From NCBI RefSeq assembly GCF_045037415.1, contig NZ_CP173438.1: DNA of 64,000 nucleotides. The stretch is one strand, 5' to 3'. Position 1 is the stretch's first letter; each line of letters starts with the position of its first letter. Shown piece after piece: positions 6,819 through 64,000 of this stretch. The notes below the pieces were generated by a model. That model was not told the origin of the DNA, did not search any database, and was given only the letters and a program-made list of their open reading frames with translations. The DNA comes from Escherichia coli. GTDB taxonomy: Bacteria; Pseudomonadota; Gammaproteobacteria; Enterobacterales; Enterobacteriaceae. A program made the position numbers and the translations under genes.

Positions 6819-7621
6819 AAATCCCCCTCATGGCACAAACGAATCTCCACCACACCGTTTTGCCAAAGCTGATGGAGTTGCCCAAGCGTGTGGTAGTAGG
6901 CGTGGCTGTCGGACATAACCAGATGCGCCAGTGGTGAAGGCCCTCGCAGCTCCCGGTAGTTAGCTGGCGCCCATGCCGCATCGCCAGCCAGTAAAGTCCA
7001 GCCGTTGTCGGTTAACACAAACGCGCCAATATGTCCGGCAGCATGTCCTGGAAGCGGCACGAGAATAATTTCGCCATTGCTTTCTGGCAGCAAATAGCCG
7101 CACTCAAACGGTGCCAGTTGCGCGGGCAAATTCACCGATGCGAAACTTTCAATAAAGCGCAGTGAGGAGTCAAAATTCTCCGGGATTAGCCCTGGCACAA
7201 AGGCCTGGCGCAGCGCAGTGACACCACGCAGAGTTCTTACTTGCCGCCAGCCTTCACCAGAACAGATGCAGGAAACATCAGGGAAATCACGCAGGCCAGC
7301 AATATGATCAGCGTGAAAATGCGACAGAATAATCGCATCAACATCTTTCGCTGCGAGGCCGGTGGCAGAAAGTTGTCGCACCAGCGCCTGTTGCGGATCG
7401 AAATAAACCGGCGTGACCTGGCGATAAAGACGAAACACACCAGATTGCGTGTAGTGTTCGAACCACGATGAATAGCCTGTGTCCCACAGCCACCGTTTGT
7501 CGCCCACCTCCAGCAGCCAGGCGCGGGCGGGGAATTTGCACACTTTCAGCCCTGCCCCTTTCAGCGCAATACAGCTAATATGGGTACACCAGCCCGTTTC
7601 AAATGCGGTTATTTTTGCCAT
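6815..7621 (-). CDS. metallo-beta-lactamase-fold hydrolase
   Basis: 268-aa ORF with the HxHxDH zinc motif (ILSHFHADHIAG). Confidence 0.7.
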   Translation of the reverse strand: MAKITAFETGWCTHISCIALKGAGLKVCKFPARAWLLEVGDKRWLWDTGYSSWFEHYTQSGVFRLYRQVTPVYFDPQQALVRQLSATGLAAKDVDAIILSHFHADHIAGLRDFPDVSCICSGEGWRQVRTLRGVTALRQAFVPGLIPENFDSSLRFIESFASVNLPAQLAPFECGYLLPESNGEIILVPLPGHAAGHIGAFVLTDNGWTLLAGDAAWAPANYRELRGPSPLAHLVMSDSHAYYHTLGQLHQLWQNGVVEIRLCHEGDL

Positions 7622-37267: not shown

Positions 37268-38359
37268 ATGGGATTCAAATGCGGTATCGTCGGTTTGCCC
37301 AACGTCGGGAAATCTACCCTGTTCAACGCGCTGACCAAAGCCGGTATTGAAGCGGCCAACTTTCCATTCTGCACCATTGAGCCGAACACTGGCGTCGTAC
37401 CAATGCCTGACCCTCGCCTGGATCAACTGGCTGAAATCGTAAAACCGCAGCGTACACTTCCCACGACCATGGAATTTGTCGATATCGCCGGTCTGGTAAA
37501 AGGCGCATCGAAAGGCGAAGGTCTGGGTAACCAGTTCCTGACCAACATCCGTGAAACCGAAGCGATCGGTCACGTTGTTCGCTGCTTTGAAAATGACAAC
37601 ATCATTCACGTTTCCGGCAAAGTTAACCCGGCGGATGATATTGAAGTTATCAACACCGAACTGGCGCTGGCGGATCTCGACACCTGTGAACGTGCGATTC
37701 ATCGCGTACAGAAGAAAGCCAAAGGTGGCGATAAAGACGCGAAAGCCGAGCTGGCGGTACTGGAAAAATGCCTGCCCCAGCTGGAAAACGCAGGTATGCT
37801 GCGCGCGCTGGATTTAAGCGCTGAAGAGAAAGCGGCTGTTCGTTACCTGAGCTTCCTGACGCTAAAACCAACAATGTACATCGCCAACGTCAACGAAGAC
37901 GGTTTTGAAAACAACCCGTATCTTGACCAGGTGCGTGAAATCGCAGCGAAAGAAGGTTCTGTTGTAGTTCCGGTTTGTGCTGCTGTTGAAGCAGACATTG
38001 CCGAACTGGACGACGAAGAGCGTGACGAGTTTATGCAGGAGCTTGGGCTGGAAGAGCCGGGCCTGAACCGTGTGATCCGTGCCGGTTATAAGCTGCTGAA
38101 CCTGCAAACTTACTTCACCGCTGGGGTGAAAGAAGTGCGTGCATGGACCATTCCGGTTGGTGCAACCGCGCCGCAGGCAGCGGGCAAAATCCATACTGAT
38201 TTTGAAAAAGGCTTTATCCGTGCACAAACCATCTCGTTTGAAGATTTCATCACTTACAAAGGTGAACAAGGCGCGAAAGAAGCAGGCAAAATGCGTGCAG
38301 AAGGCAAAGATTACATCGTTAAAGATGGCGATGTGATGAACTTCCTGTTCAACGTCTAA
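37268..38359 (+). CDS. ychF: ribosome-binding ATPase YchF (Obg-family)
   Basis: 363-aa [43 protein letters not shown] (G1 motif). Confidence 0.95.
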
Positions 38360-38418
38360 ATTAAATCTGCTGTCTCATGAGGTTTCACTGAATCTCATAA
38401 GAACCGTAAAACTCTATA

Positions 38419-38445
38419 AAATCCACGCAATTGCGTGGATTTTTC
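38419..38445 (+). terminator. rho-independent terminator of ychF
   Basis: Perfect hairpin ATCCACGCAATTGCGTGGAT followed by TTTT. Confidence 0.8.
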
Positions 38446-38490
38446 ATTTCGCAATGTCTCAATTCATCTCATAACAACGCTGTCAAAAAT

Positions 38491-38541
38491 GAGTACATGG
38501 ATGAGTACAACATTCTTCCATCTTCATTTTAAGTGAGTACA
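38491..38541 (+). repeat. three direct copies of GAGTACA (ATGAGTACA / GTGAGTACA) upstream of the integrase gene
   Basis: Copies at 38491-38497, 38503-38509 and 38535-38541; candidate arm-type integrase-binding sites. Confidence 0.5.
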
Positions 38542-38573
38542 ATAACGGTATAATAAATAAACAAGGCCCCGTT

Positions 38574-39749
38574 ATGCTCACTGATACGCAATGCCGCACT
38601 GCTAAGCCGAAAGAAAAACTCTATCGACTTAATGATTTCAATGGTCTCTACCTCGAAGTGAAACCCAATGGTAAAAAGGCATGGCGCTATCGGTTTAAAC
38701 TCAACGGTAAATCCAGCATGTTTGCGCTGGGTGAGTACCCGACGGTAAAACTTGCCGAAGCTCGCGAGAAATGCGAGCAAGCGCGTAAGCAAGTCGCAGA
38801 TGGAGTTAGCCCAACACAGGCTCGTCAGTTAGATAAGATCCGCAAGGTCAACGACGCATCCAACACCTTTGAGCTAATCGCTAAAGAATGGTTGCAGATG
38901 AAAGACTGGGCCGGAATTACCAAAACGCGGCGACTGGATATGCTTGAACGTGTGGTTTTTCCCGCCATCGGTAAGCTCCCTGTCAGAGAGATCACTCCAC
39001 ACCATATACTTAAAATTCTTCAGGAAACCGCTAAACGAGGAGCACCAACAGTTGCCGCTGAAGCCCGTCGCACCATTTCATCAGTTTTTGAGTTGGCAGT
39101 CGCGACGCTTAGAGCTGATAGCGATCCCGTATGGCCTGTGCGCAAGGCCCTTCCGGCTAATAAGACACAGCACAAACAGGCACTAAATCCCCAACAAATC
39201 GGAAAGTTACTAAGCTGTTTTGACAATAGTCGTGGCTCGTATCAGGTTAACTATTGCATGTGGCTTATGTGGTGGACATTGGCGCGTCCTGCAGAAGCCA
39301 CCGAAGCAGAATGGACAGAATTCAATCTTGATAACGCCCTATGGACTATTCCGGCAGCGCGAATGAAAGCCCGCAGAGAACACGTTATTCCCCTACCCTT
39401 CCAAGCTGTCAAAATGCTCAGAACACTACAGGGATTAACCGGGCATCGGCAGCACCTTTTCCCGGGCAGAGACAATCCGCTAGGTCCAATGACATCGCAC
39501 TCACTGCGCCAGCTACTTAAAAGCCTCGGCTGGAGTGGTACATATAGCCCACATGCAACCCGGACCACAGGAAGTACCCGTTTAAACGAGTTGGGCTATC
39601 GACCTGATGCTATTGAGGCCCAACTTGCGCACGCTGATACCAACAATGTTCGTCGCACATACAACCATGCAACTTATCTTGATGAGCGTAAAGTGATGAT
39701 GCAGGAATGGGCTGATATGTTGGACAAATGGGTAGCAGGATTCAAGTAG
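38574..39749 (+). CDS. int: P4-type tyrosine integrase
   Basis: 391-aa ORF; N-terminus MLTDTQCRTAKPKEKLYRLNDFNGLYLEVKPNGKKAWRYRFKLNGK is the typical P4-family arm-binding domain; C-terminal catalytic motifs (HSLRQ, HATRTTGSTRLNELGY); first gene after ychF. Confidence 0.9.
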   Translation: MLTDTQCRTAKPKEKLYRLNDFNGLYLEVKPNGKKAWRYRFKLNGKSSMFALGEYPTVKLAEAREKCEQARKQVADGVSPTQARQLDKIRKVNDASNTFELIAKEWLQMKDWAGITKTRRLDMLERVVFPAIGKLPVREITPHHILKILQETAKRGAPTVAAEARRTISSVFELAVATLRADSDPVWPVRKALPANKTQHKQALNPQQIGKLLSCFDNSRGSYQVNYCMWLMWWTLARPAEATEAEWTEFNLDNALWTIPAARMKARREHVIPLPFQAVKMLRTLQGLTGHRQHLFPGRDNPLGPMTSHSLRQLLKSLGWSGTYSPHATRTTGSTRLNELGYRPDAIEAQLAHADTNNVRRTYNHATYLDERKVMMQEWADMLDKWVAGFK

Positions 39750-39859
39750 AACTTGCTGCACAAAGTGAACCACGAGGATAGAACTTATTCCTCAAGGTTC
39801 TGGAGTGCCCCCAAGCCCGTAGACAAATCTGCCCTATAGTTTGAGCATAGGAGGAGTCT

Positions 39860-40144
39860 ATGGGCACACCACGATTTACCCCAGAGTTTAAGGAAGAAGC
39901 TGTCCGTCAGGTCACTGAACGGGGCTATTCCGTTGCCGATGTTTCTGAACGCCTCGGCGTATCGGCTCACAGCCTTTATAAGTGGGTCCGGTCAGTCAGA
40001 CCGGATAACAGCGGGCATCAGGCGCAGGATTTACTGGATGCGCGGACGGAGATTCTCAGGCTTAAAGCGCAGCTTAAACGTACTGAGGAAGAACGGGATA
40101 TTCTGAAAAAGGCAGCGCGGTACTTTGCAAGGGAGCCCGACTGA
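39860..40144 (+). CDS. IS3-family transposase OrfA (HTH)
   Basis: 94-aa ORF MGTPRFTPEFKEEAVRQVTERGYSVADVSERLGVSAHSLYKWV; an A-rich slippery-like sequence near its 3' end fits an orfAB -1 frameshift. Confidence 0.85.
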   Translation: MGTPRFTPEFKEEAVRQVTERGYSVADVSERLGVSAHSLYKWVRSVRPDNSGHQAQDLLDARTEILRLKAQLKRTEEERDILKKAARYFAREPD

Positions 40145-40191
40145 AGTACCGCTTCATCAACGATCACCGTGAAATCTGGTCGATCGTAACA

Positions 40192-40546
40192 ATGTGTCGG
40201 GTTCTGAAGGTCGCCCGTGCGGGATTTTACGTCTGGCTTCATCGCCCTGTTTCTGCCGGAGAAAAGGATAATCAGCGGTTGCTGGAGCTCATCCGCGATG
40301 CTTATGCACTGAGCGGCGGAGTCTACGGTTATCGCAGGGTTCACGGCGATCTTCGTGAAATCGGTGAAGTATGCAGCAGAAACCGTGTTGCCAGAATCAT
40401 GAAGCGGAACAGGATACAGGCCGTACATGGCTATAAGGTCCCGCGTGGCGTCAGGGGAAGGCCGTCACTGATAGCTCCTAATCGCGTACAGAGGGAATTT
40501 ACGATGGTAAAACCCAACCAGGTGTGGGTGACTGATATTACCTACA
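40192..40546 (+). pseudogene. IS3-family transposase OrfB, 5' exon (interrupted by the group II intron)
   Basis: Reading frame through ...KPNQVWVTDITY ends at the intron 5' boundary at 40547; the last residues of the 139-aa ORF in the track are intron-encoded. Confidence 0.75.
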
Positions 40547-42815
40547 GTGTGCCCGGAGTTCAGGGCGGGCATGGATGCTTAAATGAACCGCGAGTCTGTC
40601 TGGAATATTGAGCCGGTAACTCACGATGAGAAACCCAACAATCCCACCGGGTGTGACGGTGGAGAACCTGAGCGGCAGTGACCTGCGGCATGCCCGCAGG
40701 GTGATGTAACCCGCTGACAACGGGGATTGAGGCGAGATCACTAAGCCGAGATGATCCTCAAGGTTAAGTACTGAAAGGCTGAAGAACATGAACCCGTTAA
40801 TCCGCCTCTGTGGGTTGAAAACGTCACCACGGCCTACGTGATCTGACAGGCCGTGCAGGAGGAACTGGCAGTGATACGTAAGCACTGCCGGTCGAAGGTG
40901 TTTTGACATGTATGCGAAACACCGGGGCAGCAGCGTCTATCACGCTTGCGTTGCTGACTTCTGCCAACTTGCGGCAAGCAAGGATAAAGAGTGCGACGGG
41001 CAGCCTCCTCAGTATGCCTGAGTCCAGGCAGGTAAACCGGGGAAGGTCAGCGACGGATGTTAAGGGGGCATGGCTCCGATGACGCGCTGGCTGGCGGAGC
41101 TTCCGTAGTAGTCCGCGATGGGGAAAGCCCATTACATGGCGAAGGGAAGCAGTTTGAATGTGTTTGCGACGTGAATTAACTGACCTAACGAGGTGAAGAC
41201 CTTTGATAATCAGCGAAATGCAACGCAAGCTTGCCACATGGGCAGTCACCGATCCGTCCCTACGGATTCAACGGCTGCTGCGTCTGATAACACAACCAGA
41301 ATGGCTGGCTGAAGCGGCGCGGATCACGCTTTCATCAAAGGGGGCCCATACCCCCGGCGTTGATGGCGTGAACAAAACAATGCTACAGGCCAGACTGGCT
41401 GTTGAGCTGCAAATCCTCAGGGATGAATTACTCTCAGGCCACTACCAGCCCTTGCCCGCCAGACGGGTTTACATCCCTAAAAGCAACGGCAAACTGCGAC
41501 CACTGGGTATCCCCGCGTTGCGGGATCGTATTGTTCAGCGGGCCATGCTGATGGCGATGGAGCCGATATGGGAGAGTGATTTTCATACGCTCTCATATGG
41601 CTTCCGGCCTGAGCGCAGTGTCCACCACGCGATCCGCACGGTGAAATTACAGCTCACAGACTGTGGTGAAACCCGGGGACGCTGGGTGATTGAAGGCGAC
41701 CTGTCCAGTTACTTCGACACCGTACATCATCGACTGCTGATGAAGGCTGTACGCCGCAGGATCAGTGACGCACGTTTCATGACTCTGCTGTGGAAAACCA
41801 TCAAGGCGGGACATATCGATGTCGGTCTCTTTCGGGCGGCCAGTGAAGGTGTGCCACAGGGCGGTGTTATATCGCCGCTATTATCGAACATCATGCTGAA
41901 TGAGTTCGATCAATACCTGCATGAGCGCTACCTGAGCGGGAAAGCCAGAAAAGATCGGTGGTACTGGAATAACAGTATCCAACGGGGCCGAAGTACGGCG
42001 GTCAGAGAAAACTGGCAGTGGAAACCCGCGGTGGCGTACTGCCGCTATGCCGATGATTTTGTCCTCATCGTCAAAGGCACCAAAGCACAGGCGGAAGCCA
42101 TCAGGGAGGAGTGTCGGGGTGTGCTCGAAGGCAGTCTGAAACTCAGGCTGAACATGGATAAGACTAAAATCACCCATGTTAATGACGGCTTTATCTTTCT
42201 GGGGCACAGGATCATTCGCAAACGCAGTCGTTATGGCGAGATGCGAGTGGTTCAACGATCCCGCAGGAGAAAGCCAGAAACTTCGCCGCATCGCTGACAG
42301 CACTGTTATCAGGCAACTACAGTGAAAGCAAAGTCGATATGGCTGAACAACTCAACCGAAAACTGAAAGGCTGGGCCATGTTCTATCAGTTCGTTGATTT
42401 TAAGGCCAAAGTCTTCAGTTATATCGACCGTGTCGTGTTCTGGAAGCTGGCTCACTGGCTGGCCCGCAAATACCGTACAGGTATCGCTTCCCTGATGAGG
42501 TGGTGGTGTAAATCACCGAAACCGGGTCAGAGCAAAACGTGGGTTTTATTTGGTAAAACCAATCACGGCAAGCTCAGCGGCGAAATACTGTACCGGTTGG
42601 TGGGGCAAGGCAAGAAGCTGTTCCGCTGGCGGCTACCCGAAGGTAATCCCTATCTGAGGACGGAGACCAGAAACACGTATACATCGCGCTTTACAGAAGT
42701 GGCAATGGCGTTCGCCAGCATTTAAATGGAGAGCCGGATGCGCTGAAAGGTGCACGTCCGGTTCGGGGAGGAGAGGCAGGGAAATAGTCCGACTACGCCC
42801 TGCCTCTTACTCTAC
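40547..42815 (+). mobile_element. group II intron (2269 bp) inserted in IS3-family orfB
   Basis: Starts GTGTG (GUGYG-like) and ends ...CTAC (AY); removing 40547-42815 restores a continuous OrfB reading ...VTDITYIRTWQGWLYLAVVIDLF...; encodes an RT/maturase. Confidence 0.8.
41203..42725 (+). pseudogene. group II intron-encoded reverse transcriptase/maturase, frameshifted between the RT and X domains
   Basis: RT-domain ORF 41203..42297 (motifs RPLGIPALRDRIVQ, YADDFVLIV) and maturase-domain ORF 42339..42725 (LNRKLKGWAMFY) are in different frames; the X-domain frame stays open upstream through ...STIPQEKARNFAASL, placing the shift near 42250-42260. Confidence 0.75.
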
Positions 42816-43264
42816 TCCGCACCTGGCAGGGTTGGCTGTATCTGGCGGTGGTTATCGATCTTTTTGCCCGTAATGTGGTGGGCTGGTCGATGAAACCAAC
42901 GCTGTCGCGCGAGCTGGCACTGGATGCGCTGCTGATGGCAGTCTGGCGGCGTAAGCCTGCAGAAAACGTCATAGTGCACAGCGATCAGGGCAGTCAGTAT
43001 GGCAGTGATGACTGGCAGCGGTTCTGCAGGGCCAACAATCTGGCGCCGAGTATGAGCCGTCGTGGCAACTGCTGGGATAATGCGGTGGCAGAATCGTTCT
43101 TCAGTTCACTGAAAAAAGAGCGCATCAGAAAGCGGATATATAAAACCCGGGACATGGCCCGGGCGGATATCTTCGATTACATTGAAGTGTTCTACAACCG
43201 GACCCGGCGCCACAGTCATCTGGGTGGCGTCAGCCCGGAGGCCTTCGAAAAGGCCTCACCGTGA
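42816..43264 (+). pseudogene. IS3-family transposase OrfB, 3' exon (DDE catalytic core)
   Basis: ORF ...LYLAVVIDLFARNVVGWSMKP...HSDQGSQYGS...WDNAVAESFF is the typical IS3 OrfB C-terminal region. Confidence 0.8.
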
Positions 43265-43870
43265 GGACAGAAACTGTCTACCGGAATGTGGTCACTCCAC
43301 TTGAGTCGTCTTGCTGTACTCCTTTGGCCAATCCATTTAGCTCTCCAACGTGATGTTTTCAACGGTAACAAAAGTAACAATATAACATGCAGTCATTTCA
43401 ACGATCTCAGTGTTACCACCCATTTTGAGCAATCATATCAAAGTAACAAAAGGGGAATATTGTGTGGTTCATCGCTGAAAGCAGGCTAAGATCACCTGCC
43501 GGCTATGCATATCATGAAAGTGCTAAATGTCCCGTCTTGTTTATCAACCGAGATAAGCTGTAATTGACTGAGTGGCTCCCCTTAATGCTTTTTCTCAATC
43601 AACAGATATGGATGGGACCAGTCAGTGACCTCTTTATATGAAAAAAACCCATCGTGCTCCAGTGCGCAAACGCCCTTATGACTGGCAACGTAATCGTAAA
43701 CAGCCCGGCTTTCCAGTCCCTGTAACATGTGCGAAAGCAGCTTTCGGCGCATCACATCTGACTTCCTGCGTTTACTGTCAACAACGGGTAATAAAGTGAT
43801 CCACTAACCGTCACCACCAACGGTTTAATATTGATCCACCTTGTTTACTCAGGATTAGCTTCAGGTATAA

Positions 43871-44177
<307 letters not shown>

Positions 44178-44339
44178 CTATGAAGTGGATAGCTGTAGCA
44201 GCAGGTCCGCTGTTGTGAAGCGAACCTTGATGCCTGCCCGTAGCGGCGGACGCCCATGGCACAGGTGCCGCAGGCGAGCATGCGTTCAACGGAGAGTCGG
44301 GTCCATTAGCTGATGCTGTCAGCGTATTTTTCGAGGAAT

Positions 44340-44543
44340 TTATGTAAGAAGCGTCAAAATGAAAGCGCCAACTAATAATGACAGAATTAATAAAATACCA
44401 GTAAGCGCGTATGCTATACCTTTTCCAATCTCGTTTTTTATGGTACGTCCAATTGAATAAAGGATTAAAGATACCGATAGCAAAACTATCAAAATAAAAC
44501 CATACACTAACGCTGCAAGTGGGCCTGGGTTACTCATAATCAT
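44340..44543 (-). CDS. hypothetical small membrane protein
   Basis: 67-aa ORF with two hydrophobic helices; coding status uncertain. Confidence 0.3.
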   Translation of the reverse strand: MIMSNPGPLAALVYGFILIVLLSVSLILYSIGRTIKNEIGKGIAYALTGILLILSLLVGAFILTLLT

Positions 44544-45019
44544 CCTTTATGTTTGAAAATATTCTTATTAATACTATGCTGCTTCCTGTCTGATTCTTTT
44601 GGTAGTAATGCTGATGGGAATTTGCAATCACATCTCTCCATGTGTACATATCAGTAGAGAAAATACCTGAAAGTGGTCTCCAGAGGGGCCGCATAATGGG
44701 TCAACATGGTAAATCTTTACCAAGTTTTGATGCTCCGGAAACGCTTAAGGGCCGTAAAATAGAATGGGAATACGAAAATCTCACCCACGGCAACAAGGCA
44801 TACAACGGATACGTGACGGCCATTCTTAACTGAAATGAAGATAGCGATAATCAGGATGGCTAAAATAAAAAACGCAGGTATCAAAATCATTCCCATGACT
44901 CACGCCCCAGTGAAGTAACATATTATTCACAAATAGATTATTTCCCCGCCTCAGCTTAAACGCCTCTGTTGTAACAGTTTATCAACACCGTGAACTATGC
45001 AACTGTGCTTTTTTATGGC

Positions 45020-46415
45020 TTACGCCGCACCGTCCTTTTTAACTTCTCGCCAGATTCGCCATGCCATAAACGCCAGAACGGCAACGCCAAGTATTAACGC
45101 CCCCCACACCAGCAGCGTTTTCCACTGACTTTGTTGTTCGGCTGCCGACGTCGCCGTTAGTCGCAATTCACCGCCGAGAGTTACGCTCTCCTGCGGTATA
45201 GCCCACGGCAGATTATCTATCTCCTGCGTTTTACGCAGCGACGCAGGGATCAACATATCGAGTCCAACATCGGCCTTTTTCGCCGCCCGGTTTCCCCACG
45301 CCAGCATGTAAGGACCTTTGCCTTGCGTGTTAAAAACCAGTTGATAACTGTCGCGCGCACCGCTCAATGCTGGCAATGCCTCCGGCAATCGCGCATTAAT
45401 TGTACGTATTCGAACAGCCTCAACTAACTGGCCAGGAAGACGAATATCTTCTGAACGCTTCCCGTCCAGGCGATACAACACCGTTTTTGTCAGTGACTGC
45501 CAGGGTTCTTTTTCGCCGCTGCGCCAGACCAGTTCCACCGGTAAAACGCCTTCATTTTCCAGATCGATCCGCAACGATGTCAGGGGCTGCGGCTGTGTCC
45601 ATCGCCAGACGGCTTCATCATCCGACACCTTATCCGCCCGAGCGCCAATCACAATACGTTCGGACTCCGGCTCATTACTGTCAGCAATAGCGCTCACGCT
45701 GTTTAACGTCAGTGCCGGGCTTTGCGAGTTGAGGATCACCAGCAGGTAGCGATTTCCTTCAAGTGACAATGTCAGGTTGGTGCTGATGGCGTCCATTTTC
45801 AGACGATCGCTATCCCGCGTCAGATCCATTAACGGCGCATCTTCCTGCACGGGTCGCCAGTAGCGTAAATCACGGCTGACATAAACCGAGGCTTTCCCCT
45901 GCCAGTTGCCCGTCGGCGTCCCCCAGTTCAGACGCAATTGCGTCAGTGAAAGAGAGTCTTTCCTCTCTTCCGGCAACGTCAGTAAATAGCTCTGCCCGAG
46001 CGCAGTGACATCATCGCTTTGCAAATGAATTTCAATACCGTTTTTTGAACGTAAAACAACAGCATCCCCACTACGTTGACCCTCATCACGCGGCGGAACC
46101 GGCGACATATCAAGCGGGAAAAGACGCAGAGCCACTGTCTCTGGCGTAACGGTCTGGGTTTTCTGCGCCACCAGCGCAAACGGCACCATATCCCCCAGAT
46201 GGTTAAAAACCCGCACATCGCGCAAATCCGGCCATGCAGTGCTCTGATACACCACCTGCGGCAGCGAAATGCGATACCAGGGCGAATGCCCCCGTGGTTT
46301 CCAGCGCGACGCCTGTTGCGTAGTCCGTTGGCGCTTCCTTCACTTCATCGCTGCTGACCGCCGCGCCCGCAGTACTCAGTAGCACGCTGCATAACACCGC
46401 TTTCATCCATTTCAT
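45020..46415 (-). pseudogene. secreted/membrane-anchored protein (DUF3999-like partner of the upstream membrane protein), frameshifted in a G5 run
   Basis: Signal-peptide start MKWMKAVLCSVLLSTAGAA at 46415 overlaps the upstream stop (ATGA); the frame shifts near a G5 run (about 46286-46297) into the 411-aa ORF 45020..46255, which ends with a C-terminal TM helix. Confidence 0.55.
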
Positions 46416-56482: not shown

Positions 56483-56905
56483 TTAGCTTTCCCAGAGAAC
56501 GGTAATGGTGTAGATGTTCATGCCGTGATACTGAATAAAGTTGGATTGCCAGAGTTCAAACAGCTCCCTTCCGGCGTTAACAGGCAGGTCACCAACATAA
56601 GCAAGAAAGACATATTGCTGACTCCAGCTGATATCAATTTCCTTTTCAAGTTCGGGGTATACCGTCCCCATATAACTGAAGTCGGTAATGTAATCAAAAT
56701 ACCATTCATCATTGCGTGAAATAATCCGTATTTCGACAGGATGGTAACCACCCTTTTCAGCGCTGTAACTCAGGTCTTTAAATAACAGACTGACGGCTGT
56801 AATTTTGGCTTTATGCGGCGGTGGATTTCCCGCTTCATTTAATATGATATTTATTAATTCCTGATCGACGGGCATAGCTAGCCCTTCCTGATGGACAATA
56901 TTCAT
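56483..56905 (-). CDS. hypothetical protein
   Basis: 140-aa ORF immediately upstream of the C39-like peptidase gene, same strand; no recognisable motif. Confidence 0.45.
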   Translation of the reverse strand: MNIVHQEGLAMPVDQELINIILNEAGNPPPHKAKITAVSLLFKDLSYSAEKGGYHPVEIRIISRNDEWYFDYITDFSYMGTVYPELEKEIDISWSQQYVFLAYVGDLPVNAGRELFELWQSNFIQYHGMNIYTITVLWES

Positions 56906-57229
56906 CAGTGATTTTCCTGTTCAATATATTCTGATAAGACGTTATGTCTGCACCAGCACAGGTGGGGTTTAATCACCTAATAAATGGTAAGTGCATGACA
57001 ACGTACTGACTGGGTAAAATATAGTTCACCAGCAATATTATTATATCAAAAATATACTTTTTATGCAAATAGTAACAAAGAGAAACTAATATGTGGTTCA
57101 GCAATGAAATAACTGGCAATAGGTTTTTATTCATTATTAAGTGATGGCATACTTTCCATTCTGCCATGTCAGACAGGTCAGGATTCCGGGGTGGTTCCTT
57201 CTGTCTGGCATGGCGGAAAACTGACGCTA

Positions 57230-57739
57230 TCACACCTTCCCGTTCAGCTTTTCAAAGAGGCGCTTACGCTCATCTTCGGGCAGCTTCATGATTTGTACCG
57301 CCAGTTCAGAAACATTGGGCACCTGAGACATCAGATCGTCCTTTACCAGCCTGAGGGCCTGCTCCATCAGTTGCGCCCGCGAAGCTGGCGACATATTGCG
57401 ATACAGCTGCACCCAGAGGCTTAGCTGGCGATCACTGTCGTTGAGAGTAAACGCTTCGCCCTTAGCCCTGTTTCTCTCATCATCAAGCGACATTGTGGCT
57501 GCGCTAATATGGTAAACCACACCTTTCCCGGCAGTCCTTTTACGACGTATTTCCGGGTGCAGGGATGCCAGCTTTTCCAAGCGCATCCTGGCGCCACGCG
57601 CAGTGCCCGGCATCCCCTCAATATGAGTGAATTCCTCTGCTGTCAGCCAGTCTTTAGCCTCTTCAACAGAAGCTTCAGGATGAGTAGGTATAGCCGAAAC
57701 TGTTCTCTTACTGCTCATATAAATTTCACCAGATATCAA
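57230..57739 (-). CDS. phage Mu c-repressor-like DNA-binding protein
   Basis: 169-aa ORF with EGMPGTARGARMRL and C-terminal LPEDERKRLFEKLNG, resembling Mu repressor c (AADGMPGSVAGV...LPEEKRKEILSKYG from memory); divergent from a Ner-like gene as in Mu. Confidence 0.6.
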   Translation of the reverse strand: MISGEIYMSSKRTVSAIPTHPEASVEEAKDWLTAEEFTHIEGMPGTARGARMRLEKLASLHPEIRRKRTAGKGVVYHISAATMSLDDERNRAKGEAFTLNDSDRQLSLWVQLYRNMSPASRAQLMEQALRLVKDDLMSQVPNVSELAVQIMKLPEDERKRLFEKLNGKV

Positions 57740-57839
57740 TGCGTTAATATGAAAACCAATAAATAGATACCAAAAGAACTTGAAAGGTATCTTTTATTCG
57801 CATTTAATATCCATGTACTGATTCCATGGAGTTAATACT

Positions 57840-58109
57840 GTGCGTAACTCAACAGCATCGCAGAAAAAGCAAATCAAAGGAAGTTCAGGGAACTGGCATC
57901 GTGCCGATATTGTGGCAGCACTTCACAAGCGAGGGTTAACGCTGGCGTTACTGTCACGCAGTCACGGCCTTGCGCCACGGACATTAAATAACGCCTTAGA
58001 GCGTCATTATCCCAGAGCTGAGCGCATTATTGCCGGGGCTCTGGATACGACACCGGAAACATTATGGCCGGAAAGGTATGCCCTTAAAAATGGACCTAAT
58101 AGCAGGTAA
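57840..58109 (+). CDS. Ner/Nlp-family DNA-binding regulator
   Basis: 89-aa ORF with WHRADIVAALHKRGLTLALLSRSHGLAPRTLNNALERHYPRAERIIAGALDTTPETLWPERY, near-collinear with phage Mu Ner (WHRADVIAGLKKRKLSLSALSRQFGYAPTTLANALERHWPKGEQIIANALETKPEVIWPSRY from memory). Confidence 0.85.
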   Translation: MRNSTASQKKQIKGSSGNWHRADIVAALHKRGLTLALLSRSHGLAPRTLNNALERHYPRAERIIAGALDTTPETLWPERYALKNGPNSR

Positions 58110-58120
58110 AGGATGCAACC

Positions 58121-58648
58121 ATGGCAACCACCATCACTGAAATAACGGAATGCTTTGAGTATTTTTTCAGTTCTCTTTATCGCAGGGAGTTCGTCAAAAC
58201 CCTGCGTCTGAACGAATGTAGCGAGCGGGAATTACTGCCTCTGGTACGTTGCTATTTGCTGGGTTGGTTTGCAGATAACGTCTCACCGGAAGTAAAAAGC
58301 AAACTGCCAGGAACTGTATCCGGGCACGGTTACATTGATTTTGTCATTGACGATGTGGCCGTTGAGTTTGCAGTACGTAAACCAACTGCGGCACGTTCCA
58401 ATGTCTCTGCGACCGTCAACAGTACAGAAGTAAAGAAATTGATGAAACATGACGGCAAAGCCTTGCTTGTGCTGTTTGATTTCTCTGACACACCCTATTC
58501 AGAAGAACAGATTGAATCCTTCCGCAACTGGCCCTCTCTTGGTCGAGGGAATCATCGCAAGTCTGCATTCAACGTCGTTTATTTCTTTGTGGAAAAACGC
58601 AGACCGCTGGCACTGGGGAAAATCACCAAAAACATCCGTATCACTTAA
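58121..58648 (+). CDS. hypothetical protein (possible PD-(D/E)xK-like fold)
   Basis: 175-aa ORF immediately after the ner-like gene; GYIDFVIDDVAVEFAVRK is weakly nuclease-like; assignment is speculative. Confidence 0.4.
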   Translation: MATTITEITECFEYFFSSLYRREFVKTLRLNECSERELLPLVRCYLLGWFADNVSPEVKSKLPGTVSGHGYIDFVIDDVAVEFAVRKPTAARSNVSATVNSTEVKKLMKHDGKALLVLFDFSDTPYSEEQIESFRNWPSLGRGNHRKSAFNVVYFFVEKRRPLALGKITKNIRIT

Positions 58649-58662
58649 CAGGGAATTAATTA

Positions 58663-59022
58663 ATGAACAGAAAACTGTTGGCCTTATTCATGGCAGCCAT
58701 AACGCTACCAGTCGCAGCAGCGCAGTACGTAAAACCCGGAGCGGTTCTAACCCTGCATCCGGGACAGAATAACGCTGAATTCAACATTAATGCCTCAACG
58801 GGGGATGGTTCGGGCGTATGCAATATGGAGGGGACAGCACAGCAAATAGCTGCCGGAGAAAGTCAGAAGCGTCGCTGGGTCTGGAATGACAATGCCAGCG
58901 AGTGTGTTGCAGTAATTAGTGAACTGACAAACGGTAAGGCCAGCATTATGACACGTGGTTGCGAGGGATACTGCGGGGCTTCTGCGGCAGGCGCAATGGA
59001 TGGTCTATTTAATAAGAAATAA
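58663..59022 (+). CDS. hypothetical secreted Cys-containing protein
   Basis: 119-aa ORF with signal peptide MNRKLLALFMAAITLPVAAAQ and four Cys. Confidence 0.5.
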   Translation: MNRKLLALFMAAITLPVAAAQYVKPGAVLTLHPGQNNAEFNINASTGDGSGVCNMEGTAQQIAAGESQKRRWVWNDNASECVAVISELTNGKASIMTRGCEGYCGASAAGAMDGLFNKK

Positions 59023-59052
59023 AAGTATCATTAATTTACGAAGGAACTACAG

Positions 59053-59388
59053 ATGAAAAGAGCAATACTTCTGGTATTAATTGCTGCTGGTTTGCTGGCT
59101 GGCTGCGGCGAGAAAACGCCAAAATGTAGTAGTGATGATGCAAAAAATCTGGTCGGGGATATTGCAAGAAAGACAATCGAGAAAGGGATGAAACTGGATA
59201 AGGATGTGCGTATTTCTGTAGAAAATGTCAGAACAATTAGCCATGAATCAGATCTGGATGTTTATCAGTGCGCTGCTGATTTAACGTTTACAAAACCAGA
59301 TTTGCAAAATTCTCTACCAATCACCTACCGGATTCAGAAAACTGATGAGGGTAAAGGTCCGTTTTATATAAACGTAACAGGTTTATAA
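59053..59388 (+). CDS. hypothetical lipoprotein
   Basis: 111-aa ORF with lipobox MKRAILLVLIAAGLLAGCGEK. Confidence 0.55.
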   Translation: MKRAILLVLIAAGLLAGCGEKTPKCSSDDAKNLVGDIARKTIEKGMKLDKDVRISVENVRTISHESDLDVYQCAADLTFTKPDLQNSLPITYRIQKTDEGKGPFYINVTGL

Positions 59389-59454
59389 TCACTGAATAAC
59401 ATCCGGGTTCCTTTTGGGTGAAATAATTCATGTTTTATTCCAAAAGGAAACCCT

Positions 59455-59700
59455 ATGAAAAAGATCATCATATTTACCATTATAGCTATTATCACATTTA
59501 GTTGGCTCGTTACACACAATACAACTGAGTCCGAAAAAATCCCTCCTGCTAATACTCCCTTTATTATTAAGTCTAACGTACCTGGCATGTGCAAGGTCAG
59601 CGCCATCACAACCTCTACAGATACCAAACAGAATATACCTGTCGTAGCGTGCAAAATCAGCATTACGACCGCAATCACTTCCAGTACTACCAGTTACTGA
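59455..59700 (+). CDS. hypothetical small secreted/membrane protein
   Basis: 81-aa ORF with N-terminal hydrophobic signal/anchor and a Ser/Thr-rich tail. Confidence 0.4.
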   Translation: MKKIIIFTIIAIITFSWLVTHNTTESEKIPPANTPFIIKSNVPGMCKVSAITTSTDTKQNIPVVACKISITTAITSSTTSY

Positions 59701-60267
59701 TCACTGTGTTTACTTTACCGACAGACTGGGATACAAAAACGTCAAACACCTTCTCAATCAGTCTTATACCGTAAGCAATGCCGGGTGTGTCGGGCTCTGA
59801 GGGTTGATTAATTCCACAGGCATATGAAGACTAAATCCTACCATCCCCATACCTGCTGAGCCGCTCCGTTGAACATCTTTATCGCCTTGCTGTGGGTGCC
59901 AATCACGGCTATCCCCGCCCGTCTTGTAGGTTGGGGCTCACCAAATACGATGCCACTGGGAAGCTCTTTCAGTGTCACGTAATGCCATTTATAGCCCAGA
60001 TATGACCTGCTACTGAGCTAACTACATTGATTTGCCTAAATCCTGGGGCCTCTAAAGCGTCAGCGCCGCGCAGCAGTATAGGCAAGCCACTTTTAACGGG
60101 TTTTATCCGGCTCCCTGAGGCTGCTTTCAGAAAAGGCGTGTAATCGGATAACTACAGCAACCTAGGGAAGTATGTGCTTGTAGAATGAATGCAGTGGTAA
60201 TCAAGACTACCGCTTTTACAAACCCCACCAATCGTATAACTGCGATTTGATGGCTACCCATCCTAAG

Positions 60268-62154
60268 TTACTTCATTAAAATAGCACTATTTTTTGAGGG
60301 CAGCGGGATAAGGGCTCTGCGCTCTCCATCCATTGCATGTTCACCCGCAAACCATTCGTAATGAACTTTATTCATGATTGATACCGGCGGTTCTTTATTC
60401 TCTATAACTATGATTTGTAAGGTATCAGGCAATTGGGTCAGTGAATGCCAGAAGCCTTCCTCAATACCAGCCGATATGGGTTCATCGAAGCCCGATACCG
60501 TAGCAGCGGCTTTCTTCTTATAACTTGTCAGCGGTGAATCAATCACGACTAGCCCAGGATGCGGGTATCCTTTTTTAATACAATATTTTAGTAATCCAAT
60601 GATGAAAGCTGAATAAAGAATGGCACGAACACCTTTACCGTGAGACTGCCGAGGTTGTCCATCAACAATGATGTCATACTCTTTTTCATTAAATGAAACG
60701 TCAGGCTCGGCACCCCATTTCCAGTCTTTTAAAACAGTTTCAATTTCTCTACAAAGTTCGGCCAGCGTACGGGTAGATAATCCCTCCCATTCGAGCCGTG
60801 GTTGACTGCTCTTTTCCAGCAGTATTTCTATATCCTTTTGATGTTTTAGTAACTCAAACCATCTCTGTCGATCATTCAACTCAGAGTCTCTTTCAGCTCG
60901 CTGCTCAATAGCTAAATCTAGGCTTTCTTTGGAAAGTGTAAGAAGAGGCTCAAAAGTATATTTGATCTGGTTCTTCATTCCATCCAAGCTTTCTTTTGAC
61001 TTATATCTGTCTATATTCAGAGCTTCTTTTCTTCGGTCAAGATCACTCATCGCTTTTTGCAGGCCTGCAAGGTATCCATGAATTTTTGCAGCTTCAGCTA
61101 AAGAAGAACGTCGGACTTCATTACTGTTCATTAATTTTTTAGCGTTCTCACTGTGTGGATGTAGTAAATTTTGTCCACAAAGGGAACAAGGAACTTCCTG
61201 AAGTGAAGTGAAATAGTGAGAACCTTCGGAAATAAAATCCAACCGCTTCAGGTCGGAATGGTAACGTTCTTCTAATAGGCTATATCTCGATTGAATTTCA
61301 GATACTCCCATTAACTGAGATTCTATTTTTAACGTTAACGCTGTCTCCATTTTTATTCCCTCGAGCAAGTCAGAAATAGCGGCTGCAGCCCTCTCAACTT
61401 CATCAATTGCTTGTGCAATCAATTGATCTGATAAATCATCTGCTGAGCTCGTTAATGGAAACTTGGGCGAACAAATTGAGAAACGTTCATCAAGTGGTCG
61501 AATCAAATCCTGGATGAATTCAAGCTTCGCCATCAACCTCGCTTTTACAATTTCAGGCTTTTCCTCTACGGTAACACCACCATCATCGTGCCCGGTAAGG
61601 ATGTATGAAAACATGCGTTTTCGAGCAGTGTCGTCATAACCGGAACGTCCCGTTACTGGCGAGTATTCGTCGATAATGGATACTTCATCTACCAAAAATA
61701 TAGGAGCGAGCGTTCGAATCGAGAAACGTTGCGTTTCGCCACGAGCATTCTTGCGAAGCTTCGCCTCTTTGATCCCCGCAAAAGGGAAAAGTATGGACGT
61801 CACATCTGGCCCCTTACTCGTTCCTTTACGCACAGGAGCAATTATTTTACCTTCTCCATGGATGTCTTGAATAGCGACATCATGTGCCTCTAATTTCCCC
61901 CCCTCAAGACCGCGCTTGAGCGTTAACACCCCCCCTTCATCATTTTCGAATTCAACATAAAGATGGGTGTAATCGGTGGCCTCTTTAAGCTTTTTTTTGA
62001 GTTTTTCGGCACCAAGAATGTAGTCAAGACAACTCACAAGGTAACTTTTCCCAGTATCAGATTCCCCTGCTAGAATATTCGCACCCTTATAGAAATCAAC
62101 ATAAGCGTCTTGAACGCTGTTTCCGCGCAATAGTATTTTTCTTATACGAAGCAT
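60268..62154 (-). CDS. Rad50/SMC-like ABC ATPase with coiled coil and central CxxC hook (LmuB/DdmC-like)
   Basis: ORF 60268..62175; start set at the ATG at 62154 (MLRIRKILLRG); N-terminal Walker A GESDTGKSYL, long helical middle with CSLCGQ near the midpoint, C-terminal Walker B/D-loop (GLVVIDSPLTSY); start lies 1 nt after the upstream gene's stop. Confidence 0.75.
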   Translation of the reverse strand: MLRIRKILLRGNSVQDAYVDFYKGANILAGESDTGKSYLVSCLDYILGAEKLKKKLKEATDYTHLYVEFENDEGGVLTLKRGLEGGKLEAHDVAIQDIHGEGKIIAPVRKGTSKGPDVTSILFPFAGIKEAKLRKNARGETQRFSIRTLAPIFLVDEVSIIDEYSPVTGRSGYDDTARKRMFSYILTGHDDGGVTVEEKPEIVKARLMAKLEFIQDLIRPLDERFSICSPKFPLTSSADDLSDQLIAQAIDEVERAAAAISDLLEGIKMETALTLKIESQLMGVSEIQSRYSLLEERYHSDLKRLDFISEGSHYFTSLQEVPCSLCGQNLLHPHSENAKKLMNSNEVRRSSLAEAAKIHGYLAGLQKAMSDLDRRKEALNIDRYKSKESLDGMKNQIKYTFEPLLTLSKESLDLAIEQRAERDSELNDRQRWFELLKHQKDIEILLEKSSQPRLEWEGLSTRTLAELCREIETVLKDWKWGAEPDVSFNEKEYDIIVDGQPRQSHGKGVRAILYSAFIIGLLKYCIKKGYPHPGLVVIDSPLTSYKKKAAATVSGFDEPISAGIEEGFWHSLTQLPDTLQIIVIENKEPPVSIMNKVHYEWFAGEHAMDGERRALIPLPSKNSAILMK

Positions 62155-62155
62155 G

Positions 62156-62671
62156 TTATAAATCCAGTAGATCAATTGCGGTCAATCGGTCGAATTCAGA
62201 ACCCCATTGCCCCACATTCTGAGATATATATGAAGCAAGTTCTTCATCCGTATATTCATAGAATTGCTTTGTGACCCAAGAGGCACGTTCTGCGAGCTCT
62301 TTTGAATACTGTGACATCAAAAGCCGCACAAACCTTCCTGTTAAATTGGTAGCCTGATACAAAATACCTTCGGCAGCAAAGACAACCTTAATCAATTCTC
62401 TTGATAGCATTAAATGCAGCCCTGCCTGAATTGCGCTTCGCTTAACAAGAAGCTCTGCTCCCCGGTGAGGAACTGCTGGATGAAGGCTTTTAGGCCCCCT
62501 AGGTACGTCACTGGTATGCACAAGAAGATAGTCATACGAAACTATCCTTTGTAGGTCCATTGCTACATTGTCCGCTGCATCCAATATGAACAGAGCACGA
62601 AATCCATACTCCAGCGGAGTGTTAAAAGGTCTCTGCTCAAAGTTTCCTTCAAATACTTGCATTTCGCTCAT
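62156..62671 (-). CDS. small middle-component protein (LmuC/DdmB-like)
   Basis: ORF 62156..62683 opens with a non-ATG codon; the ATG at 62671 (MSEMQVFEG) overlaps the upstream stop as ATGA; about 171 aa, no recognisable catalytic motif. Confidence 0.6.
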   Translation of the reverse strand: MSEMQVFEGNFEQRPFNTPLEYGFRALFILDAADNVAMDLQRIVSYDYLLVHTSDVPRGPKSLHPAVPHRGAELLVKRSAIQAGLHLMLSRELIKVVFAAEGILYQATNLTGRFVRLLMSQYSKELAERASWVTKQFYEYTDEELASYISQNVGQWGSEFDRLTAIDLLDL

Positions 62672-63807
62672 GGATTGCACCAATTAATCAAGTTTGTATT
62701 GGCTAGTTGGTGGCATATACCTTCACGATCCTTATTCGTTACGTGAATGGCAAGTGGGTGCGCACCAAGTTGCAGGGTCTGAGCGGCCTTGACGGTATTT
62801 TTTAACCGAAGGAGTGGAGTCCCTGTCAGGTCAGAGGTGTAGTGATACAGACCATCATCAAACTCTACAAGTAAAGAATTAAAGAATTCTTGATTCGCCA
62901 TTTGGTCCCTAGCGAGTTCCTTTAGCCCTTCCGAGCAATAAAAAGTTATTCGGGACCGTTCAAAGAGTTTTACATGGCTGATACTTGATTGAAAATCAAC
63001 TAAATCTCGCACGTTGGTTTTGATATCAGCGCTGATAACTGAAAAGAGTTGTTCAATATATACAGTTTCAATGGGAGCCACAGATGATGGGGGCCTAGTT
63101 GGTGGATCCCGCTCAATTAATGGTGCGCCAAAGACCATAAGATGAAAAGAGGTTTTACTGTGTTCGGCAAGTATCTCAATAGGCTGTTTTGCATGAAAAA
63201 TACTAAAATCAAACTCTTTAATATATTTTTCAAGTTCAGGCGTCAGGTCAACACTATGTTTCGATGTAATTTGCTTTGAAAAAGTTGCCCACTCGGATAG
63301 CATTTTCTCTTTGAGTTTAGTTGGATCATCTAGGAGGTCTTGGAATGGCGATGTTACCCCTTTATGTGTAACAAAATGGTATTGTGTAGGTACTGTGTAG
63401 TCCTTGATGAAAGTATAATAGATAACTTTTGCAACTTCGATGCCTGCCTTAGGAAGGCCTAAATTCGCATCATAATGTTTGCATTGATATAAGTGCCATC
63501 TTCGAGGAACAGCATCAGATGGATCAAGCCATACAACAATATCTCTGCCTTTATCTCCTGCCCCGCCACGTTGTTGTACTTCGTTGACATATTGCTGACC
63601 AGCTAAGTATTCAGAGGCCCATTCGAGTGTAAACCTTTCAAATTCGGCGGCGCTAAACTGTGCCAGACGATCCAAGGGGGCTATTGGAAGCCCTACACCT
63701 AACCCAAGCAGCCGAGCGTTCGCACCCGGCCACGTTGTAGGAGCAGAAAGCGCGCCAAGCGTCGAACTTGAATTTTGTTTCATCTTCTCTACCACCACAA
63801 CCTCCAT
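62668..63807 (-). CDS. putative effector with N-terminal PD-(D/E)xK-like (Cap4/DUF4297-like) nuclease motif (LmuA/DdmA-like)
   Basis: 379-aa ORF; GDKGRDIVVWLDPSD...WHLYQCKHY fits a D...(E/Q)xK nuclease core; first gene of a 3-gene coupled operon; alternative start at the ATG at 63783. Confidence 0.6.
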   Translation of the reverse strand: MEVVVVEKMKQNSSSTLGALSAPTTWPGANARLLGLGVGLPIAPLDRLAQFSAAEFERFTLEWASEYLAGQQYVNEVQQRGGAGDKGRDIVVWLDPSDAVPRRWHLYQCKHYDANLGLPKAGIEVAKVIYYTFIKDYTVPTQYHFVTHKGVTSPFQDLLDDPTKLKEKMLSEWATFSKQITSKHSVDLTPELEKYIKEFDFSIFHAKQPIEILAEHSKTSFHLMVFGAPLIERDPPTRPPSSVAPIETVYIEQLFSVISADIKTNVRDLVDFQSSISHVKLFERSRITFYCSEGLKELARDQMANQEFFNSLLVEFDDGLYHYTSDLTGTPLLRLKNTVKAAQTLQLGAHPLAIHVTNKDREGICHQLANTNLINWCNP

Positions 63808-64000
63808 GGAGAAGTGATATTAAATCTTTAGTCTTTTAAAATTTTACAAAATCTAACACAGTGCGCCAGGAAAGTAATTGACTAAGGTTCCCCACACACA
63901 AGAGCAAATCTTAACCTTGCTACGGGACATAACTACTTCCGCCCCACCGGCTACCCAGTCATCGACAGTTTGGCAGCTCACTCCACTGTGCCGAGCATAA

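Follow-up and report, generated by a model that had tools for sequence, protein, structure and literature searches.

The stretch of DNA analysed here (the window) comprises 64,000 nucleotides of an Escherichia coli chromosome of the sequence type 131 (ST131) kind (contig NZ_CP173438.1), which is 100% identical to strain 21AR0807 over the 4-kb segment compared; window coordinates equal those of the 21AR0807 record minus 2,749,931. A 28.3-kb genomic island begins directly after the gene ychF, and we consider it very probable that this is an integrative element, inserted site-specifically at the end of ychF by its own P4-type tyrosine integrase and built of a backbone and two cargo bays. The insertion is precise and is accompanied by a 12-bp duplication that lies inside the ychF reading frame, not merely downstream of the gene. 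It is placed in the last 12 bp of ychF because direct repeats, natural empty sites and family-wide fidelity to the site all point there. An earlier note, made from the letters of the window, had described an accessory island after ychF with an integrase close by, and that description stands, with a gap of 214 bp between the two genes and a P4-type domain architecture in the integrase.

Boundaries of the island and the empty site

The core gene order narK, pth, ychF continues up to the start of the island. The features that define the two ends are as follows.

37268-38359, ychF, with stop codon TAA at 38357-38359
38348-38359, plus strand, attachment (att) site core attL, TTCAACGTCTAA, formed by the last three codons (F-N-V) plus the stop of ychF
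66676-66687 (window-equivalent; L002 7608), attR core, second copy of TTCAACGTCTAA, beyond the window

The island extends from 38360 to about 66687; the window holds its left 25.6 kb and the right end lies 2.7 kb beyond, in line with the earlier statement that the right boundary falls outside the window. The flank that follows the attR core is identical to the ychF-proximal sequence of island-free B2 strains, e.g., CFSAN067215, and the chance expectation for the 12-mer TTCAACGTCTAA in 64 kb is 0.01. Past the window the accessory DNA continues with a type I-C retron and then ends, in the source genome, before a 177-bp open reading frame (ORF) and dhaR. The GC content is mosaic, ranging from 41 to 61% across the island as compared to ~51% in the core.

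A virtual empty site of 580 bp was constructed by joining the left flank, one copy of the core and the right flank. This sequence is 100% identical in many B2 genomes and, in a census of the ychF-downstream state in 5426 complete E. coli genomes, the uninterrupted site was found in 691-692 of them, while the genomes that bear the island start to match the empty-site sequence exactly at the first base of the core. The alignment suggested earlier as a way to define attL and attR has thereby succeeded, with the TTCAACGTCTAA repeat found downstream and an empty site 100% identical in other B2 genomes. The junctions predicted from it are ...AAATTACAA-TTCAACGTCTAA-ATTAAATCTG... for attP and ...CTTCCTG-TTCAACGTCTAA-TTCCGCTAAT... 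for attB.

The native flanks of this site differ among E. coli strains. K-12 has ycgV between ychF and dhaR, in agreement with the earlier note, which placed ycgV next to ychF. The difference between K-12-type and B2-type E. coli is complete, beginning with the base right after the ychF stop and reaching to the dhaR stop (window 38360-38450 compared with L003 9161-9250 and L004 9161 onward); in B2 strains ycgV is missing, and between ychF and dhaR there is an unrelated segment of 410 bp that contains a 58-codon ORF.

Insertion at the 3' end of a tRNA or tmRNA gene is usual for islands with P4-type integrases; the target here is the end of a protein-coding gene. No tRNA or tmRNA gene was found at either junction, and the sole tRNA detected in the window with ARAGORN is a tRNA-Tyr at 2637. 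The earlier claim that a tRNA target is absent therefore holds for both junctions and needs to be amended for the interior of the right end, where a fossil tRNA fragment occurs. This fragment of thrW (tRNA-Thr) is 45 nt long, covers tRNA positions 28-72 at 95.6% identity, and lies on the minus strand at window-equivalent ~66543-66588 (L002 ~7475-7520), just inside the island right end and beside the P-arm repeats; it is kept in at least three island variants (L006 ~12750-12800, L017 ~14390-14431). An E-value-based Rfam scan of the right end missed the fragment, and blastn against annotated thrW confirmed it. In strain FDAARGOS_497, an integrase pseudogene fragment adjoins the island right end. 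Together, the thrW fragment and the integrase pseudogene look like the fossil attachment end of a thrW-integrating element that was fused into the backbone.

Integrase and attachment-site architecture

The DNA between the attL core and the first island gene, together with that gene, contains the following features.

38368-38443, plus strand, island-borne replacement 3' untranslated region (UTR) of ychF, fold z = -5.8
38368-38408, plus strand, hairpin 1
38418-38443, plus strand, intrinsic-terminator hairpin, AAAUCCACGCAAUUGCGUGGAUUU followed by U-rich sequence
38490-38497, 38502-38509 and 38534-38541, plus strand, three direct TGAGTACA repeats, candidate arm-type integrase sites of the P' arm
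38574-39749, plus strand, P4-type tyrosine integrase (int) of 391 amino acids (aa); Pfam Arm-DNA-bind_3, Phage_int_M and Phage_integrase, PHROG integrase

The integrase gene is intact and stands at one end of the island, as in an integrase-mediated genomic island. The three direct repeats before it had already been noticed and correspond to TGAGTACA at 38490, 38502 and 38534; the octamer occurs in five copies on both strands of the window as compared to 1.4 expected. At the other end, five independent islands have two TGAGTA(C/T)N repeats, at positions -78 and -66 relative to the attR core. The layout of attL is kept across most of the ~30 aligned loci from different genera, in the order core TT(C/T)AACGTCTAA, hairpin 1, terminator, arm repeats and start codon of int. 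Within this order the terminator hairpin is nearly invariant (CCACGCAATTGCGTGG followed by a T-run), and two (T/G)GAGTACA repeats 12 bp apart are found at +143 and +155 from the core, with a third at +187.

A diverged member with this arrangement comes from the betaproteobacterium Dechloromonas sp. H13 (L041 9800-10000), in which ychF and the identical 12-bp core are accompanied by a 59%-identical integrase, and four to five CCGGGTAC-type repeats stand in place of the enterobacterial TGAGTACA. Because the repeat sequence changes along with the integrase in Dechloromonas, this co-variation supports the repeats as candidate arm-type binding sites.

The two-hairpin segment after the core shares 88% identity with the ychF flank native to K-12-type strains, and homology is likewise seen with the native flanks found at attR in Phytobacter and Salmonella. 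Both hairpins recur in 26 sequences, island-borne or native, and some changes in hairpin 1 are compensatory; a simple terminator scan missed the ychF-proximal terminator, which folding shows clearly. Compared at the sequence level, attP appears to carry the stop region of ychF together with a copy of its 3' UTR, so that integration would restore an intact, properly terminated ychF.

We infer the mechanism from P4- and lambda-type systems, which serve as the model for arm binding, strand exchange in the core and the role of AlpA. The recombinase would be the island's own P4-type tyrosine integrase (38574-39749), whose N-terminal arm-binding domain (residues 1-85) would bind the TGAGTACA repeats, three of them between the core and int and two 66 and 78 bp inside the right end, and whose catalytic domain would carry out the strand exchange within the 12-bp core. 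With the ychF stop region and the two-hairpin 3' UTR on attP, each integration event would regenerate the gene, and excision would be expected to need the AlpA-family protein (53451-53648) as directionality factor.

A family of ychF islands across genomes

In the census, the island of this window, with an integrase region at least 99% identical, was found in 512 genomes, 510 of which also carry the right-end segment. A diverged integrase region, with a megablast identity of ~80-95%, is present in 115 genomes, only the 91-bp K-12-type ychF terminator in ~4090, and the empty B2-type site in ~692. The possibility that this gene content is conserved core at the locus in most E. coli, flanked by no att-like repeats, is contradicted by its presence in only ~512 of the 5426 complete genomes.

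The islands of other strains differ in cargo and agree in their ends. AR_0128, of the diverged class, has a 32.7-kb island between ychF and ycgV on a K-12-type background, with an int that is 88% identical at the nucleotide level. Its cargo consists of DarTG, a KAP NTPase and RADAR, the backbone is shared, TTCAACGTCTAA is found at both ends, and attR is followed by the native K-12-type flank. A third cargo set is carried by FDAARGOS_497 on a B2 background, again with the core at the right end, and small complete islands with both cores are found in Phytobacter (4.7 kb), K. michiganensis (2.3 kb) and S. diarizonae (7.5 kb).

A scan with the integrase protein, taking one genome per species, gave 55 loci at 52% identity or more. 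In 50 of these, ychF is located immediately upstream, with int ~215 bp downstream of it; the five exceptions are contig edges or possible tandem copies. Nearly all of the 50 ychF-adjacent loci are from different Enterobacterales species, in genera including Raoultella, Kluyvera, Pectobacterium, Kosakonia, Yersinia, Serratia, Pantoea, Hafnia, Providencia and Salmonella, and Dechloromonas is represented in addition. Integrase homologues at 32-46% identity are not adjacent to ychF. To judge from these neighbourhoods, the integrase family is specific for the ychF 3' end and has kept this target across the Enterobacterales and apparently in one betaproteobacterium. The earlier presumption that the integrase uses the ychF 3' region is thus borne out by the 12-bp repeat, the empty site and these 50 of 55 loci, with the correction that the crossover falls inside the ychF frame.

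Other spacings are seen in Kosakonia. On one contig of Kosakonia sp. S29 there are two integrase copies (L045, L032), a ychF-adjacent pseudogene and a copy ~52 kb downstream, and in K. cowanii (L033) a distance of 7 kb separates the integrase from ychF. Tandem or nested islands that share the ychF site may account for these cases.

Between ST131 and Raoultella, int is 93.8% identical at the nucleotide level and ychF 82.9%, and between ST131 and E. coli AR_0128 the corresponding values are 88.1% and 98.4%. The integrase is more alike than ychF in the comparison with Raoultella and less alike than ychF within E. coli, and therefore the element moves between genera.

This distribution also bears on the view that the segment from ychF to dhaR is a mere recombination hotspot, in which the 12-bp repeat would be incidental or a target duplication left by transposition. 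The complete difference between B2-type and K-12-type flanks from the ychF stop to the dhaR stop and the many insertion sequence (IS) elements of the island would fit such a view, but one and the same 12-mer is found at the ends of no fewer than six independent islands from five genera, the junctions agree to the base with the empty sites, and the integrase, arm repeats and terminator keep a fixed spacing across genera. Moreover, a 12-bp duplication of one invariant sequence is not a transposon signature. We regard this explanation as highly improbable, and both of its forms, target-site duplication and plain hotspot, as effectively refuted by the recurrence of the 12-mer and the exact junctions in several genera.

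Backbone and cargo bays

Between the two ends, the island has a conserved backbone flanked by two variable bays that hold defence or other cargo. The backbone synteny is seen in AR_0128, FDAARGOS_497, Salmonella/Citrobacter and Y. similis. The bays of the present copy contain IS debris and a DUF2339/DUF3999 pair on one side, and Lamassu and the type I-C retron on the other. The content listed in the earlier note, namely an IS3-family element with a group II intron, IS21 and IS30 remnants, a second recombinase, AlpA, RadC and a Mu-like switch, is present throughout. The backbone genes are the following.

50066-51463, minus strand, polymerase-like backbone ORF, 465 aa long, of which the RefSeq annotation covers only 381 aa as a hypothetical protein
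52040-53449, minus strand, two backbone orphans of 284 aa and 155 aa
53451-53648, minus strand, AlpA-family excisionase/regulator; PHROG excisionase families, candidate recombination directionality factor
53859-54485, plus strand, backbone orphan of 208 aa, divergent from alpA; 84% identical in Superficieibacter
54472-55416, minus strand, second tyrosine recombinase, XerC/D-like, 314 aa, without arm-binding domain
55448-56905, minus strand, RadC/JAB (RadC 55448-55918), a 179-aa orphan and a DUF2787 protein
57230-57739, minus strand, Mu c-repressor-like gene, part of a divergent regulator pair
57840-58109, plus strand, Ner/SfsB-like gene, facing the Mu c-like gene
58121-59388, plus strand, three small backbone ORFs of 175, 119 and 111 aa (the last lipoprotein-like), kept in other variants

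The homologue of the alpA product in Salmonella/Citrobacter matches Pfam Phage_AlpA. The 284-aa orphan beside alpA (52040-52894, minus strand) contains an invariant C-x5-C-x4-CPxC zinc ribbon; its homologue in AR_0128 (L005 35461-36333), 22% identical, has an HUH-like 'WMPHLHLLMP' where the present protein has 'WVPQLCLFLP', and a fold search with the orphan returned generic ferredoxin-like matches only.

The left bay, next to the integrase, is composed as follows.

39860-43265, plus strand, ISEc24 (IS3 family) interrupted by a group II intron
~40546-42806, group II intron, with ltrA at 41218-42726 and Rfam Intron_gpII at 42729-42815
43887-44345, minus strand, IS21 IstB remnant (43887-44138) and IS91 fragment
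45020-49111, minus strand, DUF3999 (frameshifted) and DUF2339 membrane protein, high-GC cargo
49207-49888, minus strand, IS30-family transposase remnant (transposase match 49207-49818)

In EC958, the ST131 reference, the same ISEc24 copy is intact with a programmed frameshift and lacks the intron, and in other genomes with this island type the match ends exactly at the intron insertion point, 40546; the intron insertion looks like a recent event within the lineage. The DUF3999/DUF2339 pair has a GC content of 54-61%, much higher than in the host core or elsewhere in the island, and IS remnants on its flanks. It matched none of the defence models and appears to be foreign cargo from a high-GC donor. 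Many draft contigs from several genera (L011, L012, L014, L015, L016 and L018) end 0.2-2 kb past int. Such ends suggest that the integrase gene is often followed by repetitive DNA, probably an IS, which is the case in ST131 and AR_0128.

The cassette that had been called defence-like is a Lamassu system identified with PADLOC.

60268-62175, minus strand, Lamassu LmuB, PADLOC E = 3e-176
62156-62683, minus strand, Lamassu LmuC, PADLOC E = 4e-57
62668-63807, minus strand, Lamassu LmuA, PADLOC E = 1e-105

The three genes are contiguous on the minus strand and form the LmuA effector, LmuB SMC-like ATPase and LmuC set of one Lamassu operon, the RefSeq names of which are ABC-three-component system proteins. 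Beyond the window there is a type I-C (Ec67-family) retron reverse transcriptase (RT)-Toprim gene.

A polymerase-like protein in the backbone

For the 465-aa ORF at 50066-51463, fold comparison predicts the palm and fingers of a Pol I-type polymerase. The link to polymerases is made at the level of the fold because sequence-level searches give nothing significant: no match was obtained in Pfam (including DNA_pol_A), NCBIfam, PHROGs or PADLOC, a PDB profile search gave 0 matches, and an hhalign comparison with E. coli PolA was not significant. Homologues are 455-470 aa long and all annotated as hypothetical. In their alignment the invariant residues are, in order, D262; R300, K304, Y312 and G315; and H442-D443. 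Family-A (Pol I-like) polymerases have the catalytic motifs A (Asp), B (R-x3-K-x7-Y-G) and C (H-D-E), and judging by order and spacing, the three groups of invariant residues would match motifs A, B and C, respectively.

Among 1.84 billion representative proteins, 68 matches were found at E values up to 0.001, among them a single close cluster that is full-length, plus a few dozen more distant relatives with ~340-900 aa; a Pfam domain was detected in none of the 22 distant relatives scanned. The gene lies beside the orphan and AlpA genes in the islands of ST131, FDAARGOS_497, Salmonella/Citrobacter and Y. similis, and in five other genera relatives with ~25% identity are found at the equivalent position. 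The AR_0128 island lacks the gene, and in EC958 it is split into two ORFs. As a tentative proposal, which we rate as possible and rather doubtful at present, the ychF islands might be widespread integrative defence elements of the Enterobacterales that replicate after excision via their own compact and extremely divergent family-A polymerase, this 465-aa protein; a primase, an RNA polymerase or cargo would be other possible roles for it.

Present mobility of the island

Several observations weigh against a mobile, site-specific element in its present form. The ~512 copies that are at least 99% identical share one background, which fits vertical inheritance and not ongoing movement, and in ST131 the island now looks clonally inherited. 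The present copy is riddled with IS and intron insertions, and its DUF3999 gene is frameshifted. The exact attP junction, an excised circle and a tandem form were all absent from IMG/VR and the JGI metagenome contigs, in which assemblies would rarely capture a rare circle. Relaxase, type IV secretion and packaging genes were not found with PHROG, NCBIfam or the RefSeq annotation, by searches of which none was aimed at an origin of transfer (oriT). The binding of the repeats by the integrase and the role of AlpA are read across from what is known of their families and remain putative. Finally, the B2-type attB has only the 12-bp core in common with attP, as compared to ~100 bp for the K-12-type attB, and because so little is shared, the B2 site may be a secondary one.

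Given these points, it is a serious possibility, if somewhat short of probable, that the island is an immobile fossil in ST131, which goes back to one ancestral integration and was then passed on by vertical inheritance or by homologous recombination in the flanks, with int and the att sites unused. The near-identical copies in the same B2-type context, the heavy decay by IS and intron insertion, the lack of an attP junction in public viral and metagenome contigs and the split polymerase-like gene of EC958 all agree with it. However, the present copy has retained int, alpA, the gene for the second recombinase, the two cores and the five arm repeats in intact form, and a fossil state concerns present activity only and leaves the integrative origin undisputed. 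We keep site-specific insertion by the island's own integrase as the explanation of how the island came to its place.

Relation to known hotspots and elements

The ychF/ycgV interval has been catalogued as hotspot #22 for defence islands in E. coli, and defence-carrying islands occupy it in 99 of 1231 genomes (8%) (Hochhauser, Millman and Sorek, PLoS Genet 2023; PMC10121019, S1 Table), and this is the same chromosomal position as that of the ychF island. The flank definition of hotspot #22 uses ycgV, which B2 strains such as ST131 do not have. In the portions of that paper available, the text gives no att site, integrase specificity or backbone, and the mobilisation of integrase-only islands is called unclear (PMC10121019).

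EC958 carries the island with the same protein accessions (EC958_RS06845-06975), at 1,348.9-1,374.9 kb of its genome. A region named ROD1 of more than 10 kb, with integrase genes and an unclear function, was reported in EC958 and is shared with SE15 (Totsika et al., 2011; PMC3203889). The ychF island is probably ROD1 of EC958, and the account of ROD1, as far as the available parts of that paper go, describes neither an att site nor a target gene (PMC3203889). Among later EC958 papers, one does not include the island in its inventory of the main mobile elements, and the genome paper mentions neither ychF nor dhaR, and no retron or group II intron either.

The island resembles the SXT/SGI1-type islands in its arm-domain tyrosine integrase, its short core in a housekeeping gene that is regenerated by attP, and its candidate directionality factor of the AlpA/Xis type. 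P4/SXT-type islands are known from the ends of several protein genes, with SXT/R391 in prfC, SGI1 in trmE, mobilisable genomic islands (MGIs) in yicC, and the guaA and dusA islands. The ychF island is unlike them in its target, in a 12-bp core that includes the stop codon, in the absence of conjugation or mobilisation genes among those found, and in an attP that also carries a homologue of the 3' UTR and terminator of the gene.

A second point of comparison is offered by enterobacterial pipolins (Mateo-Caceres et al., NAR 2024; PMC11551731), which are likewise bimodular, with a conserved core and exchangeable defence cargo. Genes of like kind occur in both, namely an SXT/P4-type integrase at an att site, a second tyrosine recombinase beside the excisionase, DUF2787, and a self-encoded polymerase-like gene, putative in the present case, beside the excisionase module. 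The DUF2787 protein shares 53% identity with its counterpart in a leuZ pipolin-type island, and with no other protein of the ychF island was a match to the leuZ island obtained at E < 1e-3. Unlike pipolins, the ychF island has no piPolB (family B) that could be found, its polymerase-like protein has a predicted family-A fold, and its target is ychF instead of tRNA-Leu; membership among the pipolins was rejected, given that PolB is lacking and only DUF2787 is common with the leuZ island. It has been mentioned that pipolin-like islands without piPolB may exist, and the pipolins that target ychF are Gram-positive and use serine recombinases (PMC11551731). The other ychF-integrating elements reported in the literature searched are pneumococcal prophages.

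With P4-like satellites and phage-inducible chromosomal islands (PICIs) the ychF island has in common a P4-type integrase, an AlpA-family regulator and defence cargo. A phage satellite, be it P4-like, PICI-like or of a new type, would be excised on infection by a helper and packaged in the capsids of the helper. The c/Ner-like switch and the cargo bays with defence genes, as in P4 hotspots, would agree with this, and integrase-only islands have been suggested to be possibly uncharacterised satellites, in the part of the paper available (Hochhauser et al., PMC10121019). Nevertheless, PHROG searches with 20 island proteins found no homologue of psu, delta, sid, alpha-primase or terS and no replication (alpha primase-helicase, pri-rep), capsid-remodelling or packaging hallmark, the closest phage integrase is only 40% identical, and the exact attP junction had no match in IMG/VR. 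A satellite is thus an unlikely explanation. A prophage was set aside together with it, on the lack of hallmark genes in PHROGs and the 40% identity of the nearest phage integrase, and an integrative island with its own integrase remains the preferred reading.

Taken by itself, the island belongs to an ordinary kind of element and is already known, as is the hotspot in which it lies. In the literature searched, no ychF-specific tyrosine integrase was described in the Enterobacterales, and the base-precise att site in ychF, the cross-genus integrase family and the backbone gene with a polymerase fold appear to be undescribed there.

Implications

The attachment site is resolved to the base inside a universally conserved gene and has a clear arm-site architecture, and this element family is easy to delimit automatically. 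The ychF system could represent a portable, gene-preserving integration system. In the pandemic ST131 lineage of E. coli, the island is a fixed accessory feature and carries two anti-phage systems. If the polymerase-like protein replicates the excised island, this would bear on the maintenance and mobilisation of integrase-only defence islands; the protein would then be a family-A counterpart of the piPolB of pipolins and would offer a concrete handle on how such islands persist and spread.

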